From: an uncultured Clostridia bacterium
Lineage (GTDB): Bacteria; Bacillota; Clostridia; TANB77; CAG-508
NCBI GenBank assembly: GCA_944392805.1
Contig: CALXXZ010000008.1
Span: 6,173 to 70,172, forward strand
Length of the DNA stretch: 64,000 nt
Direction of reading: 5' to 3'
Notes under the pieces: model-generated
What the model saw: the letters and a program-made list of their open reading frames with translations, nothing else
What the model was told of the DNA's origin: nothing
The model's database searches: none
Shown: positions 2,442 through 63,112 of the stretch, piece after piece
Numbering within the stretch: the stretch's first letter is position 1
How the letters are laid out: every line of letters begins with the position of its first letter
Made by a program: the position numbers and the translations under genes

Positions 2442-2804
2442 ATGGCAAAAATAGTAGAAAGTAAGTTATTAATATATCAAAAATATGTAGATTTAATAGA
2501 ATATGGATATAATTTATTAATAAAATATCCAAAAGTAGAAAAATATGGTTTAACAAGTGAAATAAGAAAAAGTATGTTTGAAACAATAAGATTAATATTA
2601 TATGCAAACAAAATATCAAATAAAATGAATAAATTAAATGTAATAAATAAAATAGATGCAGAAATAAGTACACAAAAATTTTTTGTAAGATTTTCATACA
2701 AGAAAAAATACATTAATTCTAACAACTATTATGAATGGTCAAAAAGATTAGATGAAATAGGAAAAATAATAGGAGGTTGGATAAAATCATGCCTAAAAGA
2801 ATAA
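2442..2804 (+). CDS. avd: DGR accessory variability determinant (Avd-like four-helix-bundle protein)
   Basis: 120 aa with LLIYQKYVDLIEYGYNLLIKYPKVEKYGLTSEIRKS, typical of the Avd / 23S-rRNA-IVS four-helix-bundle family. It overlaps the RT start. Confidence 0.75.
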   Translation: MAKIVESKLLIYQKYVDLIEYGYNLLIKYPKVEKYGLTSEIRKSMFETIRLILYANKISNKMNKLNVINKIDAEISTQKFFVRFSYKKKYINSNNYYEWSKRLDEIGKIIGGWIKSCLKE

Positions 2805-3578
2805 ATAACATATTCAAAAAAGCAATTACGTTTAATAAAATATTAGAAGCACATAATAAAACAAAAAAAGGAAAAAGATTTAAAAAACAAGTAATAGAAT
2901 TTGAAATGAATTTAGAAAGTAATATAATACAAATAGGAAAAGAACTACTAAGTGGAAATTATCAATTTTCAAAATATTTTGAATTTACAATATATGAACC
3001 AAAAGAAAGAAAAATAAAAACACTTGAATATAGAGATAGAGTGGTGCAAACTTGGTATGTAGAAAACTTTTTAAAACCATATTTTGAACCACAATTTATA
3101 CAAGATAGTTATGCATGTATAAAAAATCGAGGAACACACAAAGCAGTAGATAAACTACAAAAATATTTAATAAAAGCAGAAAAAGAGTATAAACAAGTGT
3201 GGGTATTAAAATGTGATATAAAAAAATTCTTTTTTAATTTAGAAAATAAACAAAAAGCAAAAGAAATACTAATAGAAATAAAAAATTTTTATTAGAAAAT
3301 TTAAAATTAGAATTAAATTCAAAAACAGCATATTTTAAAGCACAACAAGGAATAAATTTTTGTGGATTTAGAATATGGAAAACACATAAATTAATAAGAG
3401 AACAAAGCAAGAAAAAGATGAAAAGAAAAATGAAAACATTTCAAAAGCTATATAAAAAAGATAAAATAGAATTAGCATATATAACAGCATGTATAAATTC
3501 ATGGAAAGGACATGTAAAACATGCTAATACCTACAATCTAATAAACAAAATGTTTAAAGAATTTGTATTAACAAAATA
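2777..3578 (+). pseudogene. DGR reverse transcriptase, internally deleted (catalytic motifs missing) and frameshifted
   Basis: The N-terminal part has YRDRVVQ, SYACIKNRGTHKA and CDIKKFF. The ORF stops at 3295. The C-terminal part continues in another frame (FLLENLKLELNSKT..GINFCGFRIW..SWKGHVKHANTYNL*). No IGxLTSQ or YxDD motif in any frame. Confidence 0.75.
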
Positions 3579-4406: not shown

Positions 4407-4694
4407 ATGAAATATGGTTTAACAGAAGATGTATATAATAAAATAAAACAAGTTATAAAGAATAATAGTAAATATAAATTTTTGTTATTTGGTTCTAGAG
4501 CTAGAGGAGATTATAAAAGTACATCAGATATTGATATAGCTGTAAAAGAAAAAGTAACAAGAAATGATCAATATAAAATAATGAACGAAATTGACTTGTT
4601 AGATATTATATATAAAGTAGATATAGTATTTATAGATGAAAAAACTAAAAAAGAATTATTAGAGTCAATAAATAGAGATGGAGTTGAGTTTTAA
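4407..4694 (+). CDS. minimal nucleotidyltransferase (MNT) antitoxin-type protein
   Basis: GSRARGDYKSTSDIDIAV nucleotidyltransferase motif. 1-nt overlap with the next ORF. Confidence 0.75.
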   Translation: MKYGLTEDVYNKIKQVIKNNSKYKFLLFGSRARGDYKSTSDIDIAVKEKVTRNDQYKIMNEIDLLDIIYKVDIVFIDEKTKKELLESINRDGVEF

Positions 4695-5074
4695 TGAAAA
4701 GGTTTGAAGAAAGAAAACAAGAATTATTAAATGCAACACAAAGATTAAAAGAAGTCATAAATAAAGAAGAAAATGATATAGTAATAGACTGTACACTACA
4801 TAGATTCGAATTTACATTTGAGTTAGCATGGAAAACATTAAAAGATTATATGGAATACAATGGTATAATTGAAGTAACAGGAAGTCCAAGAGAGGTAATA
4901 AAAGAAGCTTTTAGAAACAATATAATACAAGATGGAGAAAATTGGATAAACATGATGCTAGCAAGAAATAGCCTATCACATTTATATGATGAAGAAAAAT
5001 CAAGAGAAATCTATATTGAAATAAAAGAAAAATATATAAAACTAATAGAACAACTAAATGAAAAATTAAATTAA
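4694..5074 (+). CDS. HEPN-domain protein (HI0074 nucleotidyltransferase substrate-binding family)
   Basis: About 126 aa helical protein with the Rx4H motif (RNSLSH). Translationally coupled to the MNT. Confidence 0.7.
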   Translation: MKRFEERKQELLNATQRLKEVINKEENDIVIDCTLHRFEFTFELAWKTLKDYMEYNGIIEVTGSPREVIKEAFRNNIIQDGENWINMMLARNSLSHLYDEEKSREIYIEIKEKYIKLIEQLNEKLN

Positions 5075-17263: not shown

Positions 17264-17295
17264 AAAAGTTGATATATTGATTATATCAACTTTTT
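17264..17295 (+). terminator. intrinsic terminator (AAAAGTTGATATA hairpin family)
   Basis: AAAAGTTGATATA-ttgat-TATATCAACTTTT plus T. The stem is near-identical to the hairpin at 63032. Confidence 0.75.
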
Positions 17296-17355
17296 ATATA
17301 AAATTCACATAAAAGACATATATATTATGTATAATACATGTGTGGAGGTAAAAAT

Positions 17356-24957: not shown

Positions 24958-25902
24958 ATGATTTTTATGAATAAAAAAGATAGTGCATCTATCTCTATTA
25001 TGAAAATCATTGGTGTTAGTTTAATATTTATATTAATTTTCGGAGTAAGCGTAATGGCTACGGAAATAGATATTAGAAGTGTTGAAATAACGATGTCAAA
25101 TGGTTACAAAATGACAGTTGTAACAAGTAAAACAAATGTATCAGAAATTTTAGAAGACAACAATATAGTTATAGAAGAAGACGAAAGAGTAAGTCCGGAT
25201 TTAGAATCAGAAATAGGAGAAAACAATAAAATAGTAATCTCAAATAAATCCGAACAAGAGGTACAAATAGCCAAAATATCAGAAAGTGGAATAGAAACAA
25301 CATTAGATGAAATATTAAAAAGTTACACACCAATAATTGAAAAAATAGTAGTAGAACAAGAAGCTATACCATATGAAACAATTACAAAAGACGCATCAGA
25401 AGGAGTATCAGACACAAAAAATAAAGTAATACAACAAGGAGAAGACGGAATAAGAGAAGTAACATATAAAATAAAATATCAAAACGACGAAGAAATAGAA
25501 AGAACAAAACTTTCAGAGAGAATAGTAAAAGAACCAGTAGATAAAATTGTTCAAGTACAAAAAAATGTAACAACATCAAGAGGATCAATATCAAGAGGAA
25601 GTACTAATACATCAGGAACAACAAAAATATTTAAAATAACAGCATATTGCCCATGTTCTAAATGTTGTGGAAAATATGCATCAGGTTATACATCATCAGG
25701 AACAAAAGCGACAGCAGGTCGTACAGTAGCAGCTTCATCTCAATTTGCATTTGGAACAAAATTAATAATAAATGGTAAAGAATATACAGTTGAAGATAGA
25801 GGAGGAGCTATAACTGGAAATAAAATAGATATTTTTATGAATACACATGCTGAAGCATTAGCATGGGGAGTAAAATACTTACCAGTACAAGTAGTTGAAT
25901 AA
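24958..25902 (+). CDS. DUF348/G5/3D-domain cell-wall protein (YabE/Rpf-like)
   Basis: TM segment, G5-like repeat and a C-terminal 3D domain (ITAYCPCSKCCGKY...VEDRGGAI.GNKIDIF). Start at the ATG at 24958 after AAAGGAGG. The track ATG at 24937 abuts the -10 box. Confidence 0.8.
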   Translation: MIFMNKKDSASISIMKIIGVSLIFILIFGVSVMATEIDIRSVEITMSNGYKMTVVTSKTNVSEILEDNNIVIEEDERVSPDLESEIGENNKIVISNKSEQEVQIAKISESGIETTLDEILKSYTPIIEKIVVEQEAIPYETITKDASEGVSDTKNKVIQQGEDGIREVTYKIKYQNDEEIERTKLSERIVKEPVDKIVQVQKNVTTSRGSISRGSTNTSGTTKIFKITAYCPCSKCCGKYASGYTSSGTKATAGRTVAASSQFAFGTKLIINGKEYTVEDRGGAITGNKIDIFMNTHAEALAWGVKYLPVQVVE

Positions 25903-25909
25903 GAAAAAA

Positions 25910-25946
25910 GTGAATTGAAGAAATATTTTCAATTCACTTTTTTTTT
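25910..25946 (+). terminator. intrinsic terminator
   Basis: GTGAATTGAA-loop-TTCAATTCAC followed by T9. Confidence 0.8.
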
Positions 25947-25948
25947 AC

Positions 25949-26155
25949 GCAAAGCTCAAAAGGGGACGGTCCTGTTTGGTGCATTATCTATATTAAATAT
26001 AACTCAAAAGTTTATATATTACTATTCCATGGCAAAACCATATTCTGGGTCTTCGTCGGGGGTCTTTGCCTTATTTCATAGTAATATATAAACTTTTTGT
26101 TATAATTATACATTTAAAAATGCACCAAACAGGACCGTCCCCTTTTGAGCTTTGC
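25949..26155. repeat. nested palindromic element E1: 37-bp perfect outer arms, 20-bp inner stem, conserved GC-rich core
   Basis: Outer arms are 25949-25985 and 26119-26155. Inner stem is 26006-26025 / 26078-26097. Stem GGCAAA/TTTGCC encloses the core GGTCTTCGTCGGGGGTCTT (26048-26066). Confidence 0.85.
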
Positions 26156-28067: not shown

Positions 28068-28132
28068 GGGAAATTTGGGGACAGTCCCATAATTACCCAA
28101 AAGGAAATTTAGGGACTGTCCCCAAATTTCCC
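28068..28132. repeat. 21-bp-arm perfect hairpin with GGGGACAGTCCC core
   Basis: GGGAAATTTGGGGACAGTCCC, a 23-nt loop, then GGGACTGTCCCCAAATTTCCC. It starts 2 nt after the lepA stop. No T-run follows. Confidence 0.8.
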
Positions 28133-55891: not shown

Positions 55892-57865
55892 ATGGAAGAC
55901 CTAGTAGAAAGCATATTAGATTATGTAAGAGCAGACTATACAGATTATGCTATAATGATAAATGGAGAATGGGGTTCAGGAAAAACATATTTTTGGAATA
56001 ATAAAATAAGAAAAAAAATAGACTCAATGCAATTAAATGGAAAACAATATACAACAATATATATGTCATTATATGGTATTTCAAACTTAGAAGATATAAG
56101 CAAGAAAATATTTATAGAAACCACCCAATTAATGGATAGAAATCTAAGAAGATATATGGATGCAAATGGTCAAACAACAATACCTGAATATGCTAAAACA
56201 GGAATAGATATGGCAAACTTATTTGGAATAGCACAAAATGAAGACAAAGTAAATTATGGAGAATTTTTCTCAACAGATGATAAAGTATTATGTTTTGACG
56301 ATCTAGAAAGAGCAAATGTAGATGTAATAGACATATTAGGATATATAAATAACTTTGTAGAACATGACCATATAAAAACAATAATAATATGTAATGAAAA
56401 AGAATTATCAACAAAACTAAAAAGCAGTAACTTAGAGATGAAAACATTTATAGCAACATATATGTTAGACAAACAAGGAGAATTATCAAATACAGAAAAA
56501 CCAATGGTAGAAAAAATAAGAGACAAAATAGAATATGTATTTGATAAAGCAAATGAATATGAAAGAATAAAAGAAAAGCTAATAGGAGAAACATTTGAAT
56601 ATGCTCCAAAATTTGACTACATAATAAATGGATTATTAATGAGATATGAAACAGATCCAGACTTAATAAGATTTTTAAGAGAAAATACAGGATTAATAAT
56701 ATCAACATTTAATAAAAGTGGAACAAGAAATTTAAGAATATTAAAACATGCATTAAATGATTTCCAAAAAATATTTGAAATGGTAAGTAAAAATTATCCA
56801 AATGTAAGTAATAGAGTAATGCAAACAATGTTAATATTCACAATCGCAATATCATTTGAAATAAAAGCAGGAAAAATAACAAAAGATAAGTTTGTAGACA
56901 TTAAGAATAATGATGAATATAAATCAATATTAGTATCATCAAGAGTATTAATGGATAACAGACAATTCTATATAAAAGAATTTGATAACAATTATTATTA
57001 TAACTTCAAATCAGAATATAGATTCTTCAAATTTATAGAATATTATGTTAGGACAAGAATATTTGATATGAAAATATTCAAAGAAAATATGGAAGTAATC
57101 TTAAATACAGCAGGACTAGGAAAGATGCCAGCATATAAAAGATTATTAACAGAAGAATATTGGAAAATATCAGATGATGAATTCTCAGATGTTATAAATG
57201 AAATAATAGAAAACATCAAAAAAGGAGAAATAGAATTAGTAGACTTAGTAAAACTATATGCATATTTTAGCTACTTCTCAAGAAAAAAACTAATTTTATA
57301 TAATATACCAACATTAAAAAGTCTATTTATAATGGGAATGAATACAGCATCAATACATTCTAAATATTGTGAAGATGTAGAAAAAGAATTATCAAAAATA
57401 GCAATAGAAGAAGTGCAAGAAGATATGGAAGATATACTAAATAGATTTTATAAGCTAAATGAACAACTAAAAGATAAAATGTACAAAGAAAAAGCAGATG
57501 AAATATTCAGATGTATACCAATGAAAATGGAAAAATTCTATGATAGATTTGATAAAGAATGTATGAATATACCAATATTCAAATATCAAGAACCACGTCA
57601 GATGTTCCAACGAATATCATGTGCAAGTAATGAAGATATAGTAATAATAAAAGAAAAACTAATAAATAGAGCAAACACATATACAAAAGAAATTGAGTCA
57701 GAAATGCCAAACATAGAACAACTAAAAGAAATAATTGATGAATATACAATAGGAAAAGAAATATCTATAAAAGTTGTAATGCTAAAAGAATTTGCAAAAG
57801 ATTTAGGTTATATTATAGATAAATATAAAACAAATAATATTATAGTAAAAAAAGATGAAGAATAA
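55892..57865 (+). CDS. KAP family P-loop NTPase
   Basis: INGEWGSGKTYFW Walker A and VLCFDDLER Walker B in typical KAP spacing. 657 aa. No clear inserted TM helices. Confidence 0.7.
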   Translation: MEDLVESILDYVRADYTDYAIMINGEWGSGKTYFWNNKIRKKIDSMQLNGKQYTTIYMSLYGISNLEDISKKIFIETTQLMDRNLRRYMDANGQTTIPEYAKTGIDMANLFGIAQNEDKVNYGEFFSTDDKVLCFDDLERANVDVIDILGYINNFVEHDHIKTIIICNEKELSTKLKSSNLEMKTFIATYMLDKQGELSNTEKPMVEKIRDKIEYVFDKANEYERIKEKLIGETFEYAPKFDYIINGLLMRYETDPDLIRFLRENTGLIISTFNKSGTRNLRILKHALNDFQKIFEMVSKNYPNVSNRVMQTMLIFTIAISFEIKAGKITKDKFVDIKNNDEYKSILVSSRVLMDNRQFYIKEFDNNYYYNFKSEYRFFKFIEYYVRTRIFDMKIFKENMEVILNTAGLGKMPAYKRLLTEEYWKISDDEFSDVINEIIENIKKGEIELVDLVKLYAYFSYFSRKKLILYNIPTLKSLFIMGMNTASIHSKYCEDVEKELSKIAIEEVQEDMEDILNRFYKLNEQLKDKMYKEKADEIFRCIPMKMEKFYDRFDKECMNIPIFKYQEPRQMFQRISCASNEDIVIIKEKLINRANTYTKEIESEMPNIEQLKEIIDEYTIGKEISIKVVMLKEFAKDLGYIIDKYKTNNIIVKKDEE

Positions 57866-57888
57866 AAAGAAGAAAGGATGTGGTAAAT

Positions 57889-58407
57889 ATGCAAAGCTCT
57901 ACTTCAACAATAATTGCATTAGTAGTAGCAGCAATATTCTTATTTGTAGTTCCACTAGTAACATTAACAGAAAGAAATGATAATGTAGTACAAGAAAATG
58001 TTAAATTAATAGTAGAAGAATTTGTTACTGATATTAAAAATACAGGAAAATTAACAAATGCAAAAGTACAAAACTTTGAAAATAGGTTAGCAGCTACAGG
58101 AAATACATATAATATAGAAATGGAATTACAAATATTAGACGAAAACCCTGGAAAGAAAACAACTCAAGCTAATTACAAGAAAATAGGAGAAAATGTATAT
58201 TATTCAGAATATACAACTCAAATTTATGACAAATTAAAAGTAGGAGATATTTCATTAAAAGAGGGTGACTTTATATATGTAGGTGTAACAAATCAAAATA
58301 GTACAGCAGCACAAACATTGAAAAGTTCATTCTTAAGTTTCTCTAATGCTGGAGAACATGTAATTTCAGCCAATAGTTCAGGAATGGTAAATGCAAACGG
58401 AAATTAA
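57889..58407 (+). CDS. hypothetical protein with N-terminal TM segment
   Basis: STIIALVVAAIFLFVVPLVTL. Start placed at the ATG at 57889, 10 nt after GAAAGGA (track GTG at 57880). Confidence 0.5.
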   Translation: MQSSTSTIIALVVAAIFLFVVPLVTLTERNDNVVQENVKLIVEEFVTDIKNTGKLTNAKVQNFENRLAATGNTYNIEMELQILDENPGKKTTQANYKKIGENVYYSEYTTQIYDKLKVGDISLKEGDFIYVGVTNQNSTAAQTLKSSFLSFSNAGEHVISANSSGMVNANGN

Positions 58408-58424
58408 AATGTTAATTTAAATAT

Positions 58425-58514
58425 AAAAAGAATATATAACTATTTCATAGTCAAAACATAGCTATGGTCTTCGTCGGGGGTCTTGACTTTACTCAATAGT
58501 TATATATTCTTTTT
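58425..58514. repeat. nested hairpin element E2 (20-bp stem, conserved GC-rich core); doubles as a terminator
   Basis: AAAAAGAATATATAACTATT ... AATAGTTATATATTCTTTTT plus a T-run. Inner stem AGTCAA/TTGACT encloses GGTCTTCGTCGGGGGTCTT (58466-58484). Confidence 0.85.
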
Positions 58515-58597
58515 TTTTATAAATGAATAAAACACTTGACTTTTTTTTTATAATATGAAAAAATACGAAAAGAAAAACAAGAAAGGAAGTATATTAA

Positions 58598-59062
58598 ATG
58601 GAAAAAATAAGAGGATTTGAAATTGCAAAAGGATTTGAAGATAAAAATATAAACTTACCAGAAAGAAAAACTAAATATTCAGCAGGATATGATGTAGAAT
58701 GTGCAGAAGATGTAATAATACCAAGTTTCAAAAAAGGAATGAAACCAACTTTAGTAAAAACAGGAATAAAAGCATATATGCAAGATAATGAATATCTAAT
58801 GTTAGTAAATAGAAGTTCTAATCCAGGAAAAAAAGGATTAGTATTAGCTAATAGTGTAGGAATAATAGATAAAGATTACTATGGAAATCCAGATAATGAT
58901 GGACACTTTATGTTTGCATTTTATAATACAAAAGATGAAGACATTGAAATCAAAAAAGGTGACTGCATAGGACAAGCAATTTTTATGCCATATTTATTAG
59001 CAGATGGAGATAAAGCAAACGGAGAAAGGACAGGCGGTTTCGGCTCTACAAGTAAAAAATAA
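58598..59062 (+). CDS. dut: dUTP diphosphatase
   Basis: AGYDV, GIIDKDYYG and GGFGSTSKK motifs of the trimeric dUTPase family. Confidence 0.85.
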   Translation: MEKIRGFEIAKGFEDKNINLPERKTKYSAGYDVECAEDVIIPSFKKGMKPTLVKTGIKAYMQDNEYLMLVNRSSNPGKKGLVLANSVGIIDKDYYGNPDNDGHFMFAFYNTKDEDIEIKKGDCIGQAIFMPYLLADGDKANGERTGGFGSTSKK

Positions 59063-63017: not shown

Positions 63018-63031
63018 TTATTTAGACAATA

Positions 63032-63081
63032 AAAAAGTTGATATATTACTAAAATTCTTAATAGTTATATATCAACTTTTT
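63032..63081 (+). terminator. long AT-rich hairpin between ptsH and ptsI (AAAAGTTGATATATTACTA family)
   Basis: About 20-bp stem with one mismatch, a 10-nt loop and a T-run. The stem is homologous to the E1 inner stem and to the hairpin at 17264. Confidence 0.6.
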
Positions 63082-63112
63082 AATAAGTATTGCAATGATT
63101 GGAGGAAAAATA

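Follow-up and report, generated by a model that had tools for sequence, protein, structure and literature searches.

A dispersed palindromic repeat with a conserved asymmetric centre in uncultured gut Clostridia, probably of the REPIN/MITE type

Palindromic repeats of the REPIN and MITE type have been studied mainly in Proteobacteria. The REP and BIME sequences of E. coli bind gyrase, IHF and Pol I, and bacterial MITEs are transcribed into hairpin RNAs and can serve as terminators or RNase targets. The minute hairpin-loop inversions of chloroplast non-coding DNA and the quasipalindrome hotspots of E. coli represent single-locus mutational processes. Intrinsic (Rho-independent) terminators usually have a GC-rich stem of 5–14 bp and a loop of 3–8 nt, and in their bidirectional form an A-tract, a hairpin and a T-tract follow just past stop codons. 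The REPIN/REP-BIME repeats, which RAYT (Y1) transposases mobilise (PMC3116915, PMC3333891, PMC2817692), are high-copy, strictly extragenic inverted repeats that form long hairpins as ssDNA or mRNA, often lie behind genes and vary in presence between relatives; REPINs carry conserved 16–25-mers at their ends around a variable spacer, together with a GTAG-type 5′ motif and a RAYT. Likewise, the MITEs (Correia/NEMIS, RUP, ERIC, bcr1; PMC3184786) are small, non-autonomous and intergenic, with inverted ends. The insertion sequences IS1397, ISKpn1 and the IS110-family ISPpu9 (PMC1525189, PMC12288879) are autonomous, with genes, and target the loop or centre of extragenic palindromes.

The hairpin compared with these systems here was found in 64 kb of DNA from an uncultured Clostridia bacterium (the window, i.e. 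the whole stretch analysed), which has a GC content of approximately 27% and genes mostly on the + strand. It occupies 58425–58514 (copy 2; the hairpin, repeat-arm and promoter coordinates below all refer to the + strand) and consists of a 20-bp outer stem, a 5–6-bp inner stem and a loop of about 30 nt containing the 19-nt core GGTCTTCGTCGGGGGTCTT. The 5′ arm of the outer stem P1 (58425–58444, AAAAAGAATATATAACTATT) pairs perfectly with the 3′ arm (58495–58514, AATAGTTATATATTCTTTTT), and the T-run continues to 58518, giving nine T in total. The inner stem P2 is formed by AGTCAA (58449–58454) and TTGACT (58483–58488), and the asymmetric terminal loop (58455–58482) reads AACATA, five variable nucleotides and GGTC-N9-GGTC. 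The core (58466–58484) starts in the loop and enters the 3′ arm of P2 by 2 nt; its only other exact match in the window is at 26048–26066, with none expected from 100 shuffles. The predicted fold has an energy of −27.3 kcal/mol on the + strand (z = −6.0 versus shuffles) and −29.7 kcal/mol on the − strand (z = −9.7). Copy 2 begins 17 nt past the stop codon of an uncharacterised 175-aa ORF (57880–58407), consistent with its earlier placement directly after that ORF with a U-run at its end, and 83 nt separate its end from the start of dut (58598–59062). Between the module and dut lies a promoter-like site (58536–58564; TTGACT, 17 nt and a TG-extended −10, a consensus match only), which falls inside approximately 165 nt that are absent from relatives.

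Several other features of the window may be recorded here. The segment 379–3295 looks like a decayed diversity-generating retroelement: a 559-aa protein gives a weak FGE-sulfatase/C-type-lectin-like match (E 5e-4), the ORF at 2442–2804 is bAvd-like (E 4e-26), and the 172-aa ORF at 2777–3295 corresponds to the N-terminal portion of a reverse transcriptase only (RVT_1, E 1.7e-6). At 4407–5074, two adjacent ORFs share one base, one for a nucleotidyltransferase (Polbeta/NTP_transf_2) and one of the NTase-substrate-binding (HEPN-like) type, which is the gene layout of an MNT-HEPN toxin–antitoxin pair. A 30-nt inverted repeat at 143–310 (TATCCTTAATTGTTTTAATTAAGGATACAT and its complement, 97%, with 108 nt between the arms) lies downstream of the end of an L7/L12-like gene, and both of its arms are themselves palindromic.

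The initial annotation had recognised that 58425–58514 repeats a hairpin module of the window, with an identical core in both copies, and the stems, T-run and core can all be read from the sequence. The first copy (copy 1, 26003–26096; 114 bits) is located at the tip of a larger palindrome. However, the view of the module as a pair of copies proved too narrow, as they are members of a dispersed family that numbers at least 67. In a scan for the exact 19-mer that covered one genome per species, 67 copies of the core were located in six low-GC MAGs of "uncultured Clostridia": 34 in BRZ_EF bin101, 23 in a Hadza MAG, four each in E14 bin256 and SGB_3412, and one each in a goat MAG and a MAG labelled Lachnospiraceae. 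Five further matches, in high-GC genomes, were taken as chance. The copies are scattered among housekeeping genes and none lies within an ORF; 45 lie between co-directional, 9 between convergent and 4 (of 58) between divergent genes, and in co-directional gaps the module is mostly closer to the upstream stop codon. Between co-directional genes the core is in sense orientation 31 times and antisense 14 times; BRZ has a ratio of about 14:3 and the Hadza MAG one of 7:8. The organism of the window was found in chicken-gut and faecal metagenomes. In the former, read depth over the module is 10–15 times that of its flanks; the part common to other copies, in chicken-gut metagenomes as well as metatranscriptomes, is 58433–58507, with loose ends at 58432 and 58507 where the other copies part. 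Multimeric arrangements were also observed: three head-to-tail units with a period of 108 are present at L068:4035–4344, the first of them lacking the 5′ arm, and two chicken-gut metatranscriptome contigs (X24/X25) contain a joint that goes back 78 within window positions 58431–58508, with a 15-nt linker.

An alignment of 60 distinct copies was nearly gapless and defines the module, from the outside in, as an A-tract, P1 of 19–20 bp with the T-tract outside, an internal loop of 5/7 nt, P2 of 5 bp and a loop composed of AAA(A/C)CATA, 4–5 variable nucleotides and the core. The proposed covariation of the stems is evident in this alignment: 96.1% of the cells are paired, compared with 34–45% in slid controls, and two-sided changes occur in 17 of the 25 pairs (200 cells), including four of the five pairs of P2, a level reached in none of 500 shuffles. 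The 20-bp arms of P1, paired at 95% over the 60 copies, represent terminal inverted repeats as in MITEs. Mutual information was highest for the stem pairs, and its use in a search for pseudoknot or tertiary covariation returned just these pairs and subfamily haplotypes in the 4–5 variable nucleotides. Between the two window copies about four pairs of P1 are exchanged; in P2, where a single G-C to T-A change had been reported, in-register alignment gives three base-pair differences, all of them compensated (G-C to A-T, C-G to T-A and A-T to C-G). The CATA..TATG mini-stem noted earlier is indeed present in copy 2 but is private to it, as 58465 is T, versus G in most copies, and the mini-stem columns are without a covarying partner. 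Conservation is high in the centre and the proximal stem, and the distal stem is variable (GTTT, GTTA, ATTA, TGA, AGAA). The conserved common unit is approximately 75–90 nt rather than only the core and a few loop bases.

Nor is the core itself invariant, as had been suggested. The constancy of the 19-mer over 67 copies follows from the search, which used that 19-mer. Diverged members, obtained with a covariance model (R1), from orthologous loci and with a core-free pattern, carry different cores in the same frame (GGTCTTCGTCGGGAGTC, AGGTCTTCGGCGGGGATC, GGTTTTCGTACCAGGGTC, GGTATTCACCAGAGTGCC, GGGGTCATCCCCATAGTGGGTC, GGTCATACCTACAGGTC, GGTCATCTCTATAGGTC and GGTCTTCCTATAGGTC), and the constant of the family is CATA-N4–5-GGTC-N8–13-GGTC-TT. 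The core is a portion of a longer repeat, a finding that the initial annotation had named as one that would refute its reading. The core-free pattern scan, performed on the JGI metagenome collection, gave 10 true members, which come from only three distinct sites, so that it samples the diversity of cores thinly. In three pairs of orthologous loci, 0, 1 and 0 of the 19 core nucleotides have changed, with flanks that differ by 7–10%, figures that do not clearly point to a slower rate of evolution for the core. Between the window and its relative L070, 6 of 50 centre positions differ, one of them in the core, and the arms are identical.

The stem changes had been taken to argue for selection on a fold. 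Covariation is not decisive for an RNA fold in this setting, since compensatory stem change is common in mobile REPIN hairpins (PMC3116915), and it does not discriminate between a selected RNA fold and a palindrome of mobile DNA. Moreover, one-sided (wobble) states account for 4 cells versus 200 with two-sided changes, and in our own tally of pair types A.C (7 cells) is about as common as G.U (5 cells), i.e. neither RNA strand is favoured. The scarcity of wobble states and the parity of A.C and G.U do not look like RNA selection. Overall, the initial interpretation is partly supported: the module, its shared core and its paired stems stand, and the two-copy, invariant-core picture does not.

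The orientation of the centre provided a further view of the element. In SGB_3412 (L049) and the goat MAG (L037), the module lies in collinear flanks of about 93% identity with identical arms, the 50-nt centre of one being the exact reverse complement of the other's; all 50 centre bases are kept despite flanks that are about 7% diverged, an identity that could result from selection or from concerted evolution. Likewise, the centre of window copy 1 is flipped relative to its BRZ counterpart (L002; 89.6% nucleotide identity over 6.8 kb), which also has a different P2 variant (AGCCAA/TTGGCT) and a different distal stem (GTTA/TAAC), and at L061 the centre runs opposite to that of 19 paralogous Hadza copies. 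The simplest reading is a flip of the centre, or its replacement in either orientation, between mutually reverse-complementary arms. Since the centre flips at orthologous loci, and occurs in sense and antisense orientation in a ratio of 31:14, it is unlikely that the core acts as RNA in a strand-specific way; still, the bias itself, most marked in BRZ, leaves room for a strand-dependent effect.

Presence/absence polymorphism of the module at orthologous sites was seen at dut, lepA and murA. At the dut site, five relatives with dUTPases of 88–90% identity (L073–L077) have 23–27 nt from the ORF stop to the dut ATG, hairpin-free, compared with 190 nt in the window, made up of the module and approximately 75 nt that include the promoter-like site. 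The module is also present in the three closer relatives (L070–72, 96%). The insertion of about 165 nt is thus more than the module alone, and the site before insertion had neither a hairpin nor arm homology. Gene content shifts at the left edge of copy 2 (window 55892–58407 versus L070:238–2318): the order in the window is KAP-NTPase, 175-aa ORF and copy 2, and in L070 two additional ORFs (100 and 402 aa) separate a 172-aa ORF from the module. A boundary of recombination or insertion may lie at copy 2.

At the lepA site, where identities refer to the neighbouring G5/3D-domain protein, the region upstream of lepA contains an ordinary terminator only in L105 and L107 (80%), and a different module subfamily in L104 (88%). 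L103 (95%) has a REP-like doublet with GGGGACGGTCC arms and the apex TTATAAAC-TTTCC-GTTTACA, without the module, and the window (100%) and BRZ L002 (92%) have an L103-type doublet with the module exactly at its apex. In the window, this doublet is a perfect 37-nt inverted repeat (25949–25985, with GGGGACGGTCC, and 26119–26155, GGACCGTCCCC). A separate canonical terminator, a hairpin followed by T9 (25902–25945), lies directly behind the 3D-domain gene, upstream of copy 1. The L104 subfamily (L104:2490–2620) has the arms AAAGTAAATATATTCATAT and ATATGAATATATTTACTTT, the P2 GACAAA/TTTGTC and the loop ..GCATGCCCCGGTCTTCCTATAGGTC. Only lepA offers a module-free hairpin for comparison, and there the module lies at the apex of a pre-existing REP-like hairpin. 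At another orthologous site, BRZ (L003) and SGB_3412 (L056) have the module in common, and REP arms are present in BRZ only, symmetrically on both sides. Downstream of murA, three MAGs have three different hairpin elements.

REP-like units of the form GGGGACNGTYC, arranged as inverted doublets, constitute a second repeat family in the window and in the BRZ loci. The doublets are either tight, with 34-nt spacing, or wide with the module at the apex; one without the module follows lepA (28068–28132, GGGGACAGTCCC and GGGACTGTCCCC). The string GGGACNGTYC occurs six times in the window versus 0.01 expected. In the BRZ loci, seven REP doublets contain the module and eight do not, and since modules and REP arms occur independently, they are separate, nesting elements.

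Nesting is most extensive in the Hadza MAG (CAKOXV01; L009–L067, e.g. L022:5940–6310), where the module forms the exact centre of a conserved imperfect palindrome of about 330 bp. Outside the module, these elements contain a segment of 12–45 nt that is unique to each copy, its left and right versions being inverted complements, and an outermost, semi-conserved frame, TAGTTTAA..ATATAGCTTAGC / GCTAAGTTATAT..TTAAA. One Hadza copy sits between divergent genes. The hypervariable flanks were also considered as spacer-like phage matches; two exact-match scans were empty, with no match in viral contigs for two copy-specific inverted flanks. No direct target-site duplication was detected in the empty/filled comparisons at dut and lepA, where junctions are blurred by divergence; the flanks of empty and filled sites are related as inverted, not direct, sequences, and no sharp element end could be defined. 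An origin of the distal stems from direct duplication of a palindromic target was discarded for copy 1, as its junction loops are reverse complements and not identical.

With a hairpin of −27 kcal/mol, a U9 run and a position 17 nt past a stop codon, copy 2 has the layout of an intrinsic terminator, the use that was first proposed for it. At least four T follow the 3′ arm in 54 of 64 copies, and at least four A precede the 5′ arm in 56 of 64; judged from sequence, this succession of A-tract, hairpin and T-tract is a bidirectional-terminator architecture, and it is plausible that the module terminates transcription. The outer hairpin is missed by a simple terminator scan on account of its AT-rich stem and long loop. 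Copy 1 is already preceded by the canonical terminator described above, and the close relatives have no terminator ahead of dut. Metatranscriptome contigs, which are unstranded and may include DNA, join the module to both neighbouring genes, some of them reading through into dut. Hairpins with module arms and without the core were found behind genes at 63029–63084 of the window and, in L016, behind murA. The former (28 bits) has the outer-stem sequence of the module, GTTGATATATTACTA and TAGTTATATATCAAC, around a 10-nt loop that keeps ATTC..AATAGT, and is probably an internally deleted module. As such core-less loops retain remnants of the 3′ internal loop of the module, they look like internal-deletion derivatives, and their persistence behind genes suggests that the core is dispensable for the role of the hairpin. 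The short hairpin AAAAGTTGATATA..TATATCAACTTTT (17264–17296; 20 bits, E about 0.03), earlier cited as another core-less relative, is a weak relative of the module or simply a terminator.

Searches for known families and for a mobilising enzyme gave negative results. With the Rfam release 15 covariance models, just tRNAs reach the gathering threshold in the window, and both copies and five loci gave nothing relevant at gathering or at E up to 10; the matches near both copies were of the generic long-hairpin (miRNA-precursor) kind and scored far below gathering. The exact core has no match in viral contigs, the module none by blastn against plasmids and phages, and the core string none on either strand in the searchable literature. 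Small ribozymes (hammerhead, twister, pistol, HDV-like) were rejected, the covariance models being empty and signature motifs absent by eye, and so was an integron attC site, given the lack of conserved R boxes (RYYYAAC / GTTRRRY), the variable distal stem and the absence of a cassette array. No transposase, RAYT, recombinase or other recurrent gene adjoins the copies in 0.46 Mb of loci, and no RAYT or other relevant domain was returned by Pfam for ten small ORFs of the window (135–234 aa). A parent autonomous IS with matching ends was not found in the loci, plasmids, phages and viral contigs. A search space of about 0.5 Mb gives the missing transposase little weight as evidence.

Compared with the described systems, the module resembles REP and REPIN sequences in being a high-copy, extragenic hairpin repeat with compensatory changes, often behind genes and variably present between relatives, and the window genome and the BRZ MAG even contain REP-like doublets that enclose many modules. 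Conversely, it reverses the REPIN pattern, with a conserved asymmetric centre and a variable distal stem in place of conserved ends and a variable spacer; neither a GTAG-type 5′ motif nor a RAYT was found for it, and the module and the REP arms can each occur without the other. It shares small size, inverted ends and intergenic location with the MITEs, but differs in its 20-bp arms, which match almost perfectly, and in its frequent position at the tip of another palindrome. The position at lepA recalls the REP-targeting insertion sequences; however, the module is 90 nt long and ORF-free, and the dut copy is not in a hairpin. As in hairpin-loop inversions and quasipalindromes, the loop is reverse-complemented between close relatives and arm changes are mirrored, here as a family-wide property rather than at single loci, so that the suggested link goes by analogy. 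Finally, the 20-bp AU-rich stem and the structured interior of about 50 nt differ from the short GC-rich stems and small loops of intrinsic terminators. The module falls outside any named family, because it does not follow the conserved-ends pattern of REPINs and is without a demonstrable target-site duplication, parent IS or RAYT. We file it as an intergenic palindromic repeat, previously undescribed as far as the searches covered.

The reading we favour, and consider probable, is that the module is a non-autonomous palindromic repeat of the REPIN/MITE type whose hairpin also acts as a terminator, the choice between an enzyme and copying by repair being left aside. According to this reading, a clade of uncultured low-GC gut Clostridia carries the element in high copy, and it would spread as hairpin-forming DNA, via an enzyme or via repair or gene conversion between hairpins. 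Just those copies that retain pairing and the centre would proliferate, which would give conserved loops and covarying stems. An inserted hairpin with its A- and T-tracts would then serve neighbouring genes as a bidirectional intrinsic terminator or 3′-end stabiliser, a role for which the core would be dispensable. It is rather improbable, in our estimate, that spread occurs entirely without a transposase, with hairpin tips that are cut (e.g. by an SbcCD-type nuclease) or stall replication, followed by templated repair. Repair or template switching would copy the centre from another copy, guided by homology of the 20-bp arms; the left arm being the reverse complement of the right, a donor could align either way and centres would be installed in either orientation, and self-priming fold-back synthesis would extend the palindrome outward into unique flanks. 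Such homing to hairpin apices, if true, would explain the nested layers (the module inside a REP doublet and inside the 330-bp palindrome of the Hadza MAG), the inverted flanks that are specific to each copy and the "compensatory" stems without selection on the fold. The flipped centres, and at the lepA site also the exchange of the centre for a different subfamily variant, agree with it, as do the module exactly on a pre-existing apex at that site, the Hadza palindromes that reach into unique 12–45-nt inverted flanks, the symmetric additional arms of L003 versus L056, the near absence of wobble intermediates and the lack of a transposase beside the copies. It is weakened by the dut site, which had neither a hairpin nor arm homology before insertion, and by its reliance on analogy with palindrome instability and quasipalindrome template switching, which are known general processes.

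Opposite-strand centres at orthologous loci, and the even orientation in the Hadza MAG, weigh against the idea of a functional structured RNA, i.e. a 3′-UTR or terminator element or a small RNA with a core read by a protein or RNA. Strong covariation, loops more conserved than stems, the sense bias (31:14 overall, about 14:3 in BRZ), the presence of the module in metatranscriptome contigs and the 50/50 centre identity of one orthologous pair would all fit such an RNA. Yet unrelated sequence replaces the core in other members, a close relative has one core change and six changes in its 50 centre positions, G.U is not favoured over A.C in our tally, Rfam gives no match, relatives do without the module at both window sites and core-less derivatives persist. 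We regard this explanation as unlikely, and the 90-base hairpin is not likely to be a dedicated RNA gene. The same two orientations of an approximately 50-bp centre between inverted repeats of 17–20 bp could instead indicate a phase-variable inverton, or the module could be a host-recruited DNA site for a chromosomal protein, as suggested by the high copy number, the regular intergenic placement and a direct GGTC repeat kept across subfamilies. We know of no protein that binds such a site. As for an inverton, inversions are seen only between genomes, recombinases would have very little room for synapsis on duplex DNA with a spacer of 50 bp, no recombinase is adjacent in the loci, and the centre is without a conserved promoter, TTGAC occurring in some P2 variants only. 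A host-recruited site or inverton seems very unlikely to us.

If the REPIN/MITE-type reading is right, uncultured gut Clostridia possess repeats of this type, with a conserved asymmetric centre that flips and a tendency to nest at hairpin tips. In that case, covariation that looks perfectly "compensatory" would stem from a dispersed DNA palindrome rather than from a selected RNA, which calls for care when RNAs are discovered in MAGs by covariation. At the dut site, the module splits an ORF–dut pair that is contiguous in relatives and adds a terminator-like hairpin and a promoter-like site, and may in this way rewire the operon. The family could also provide a strain-typing marker for the clade.
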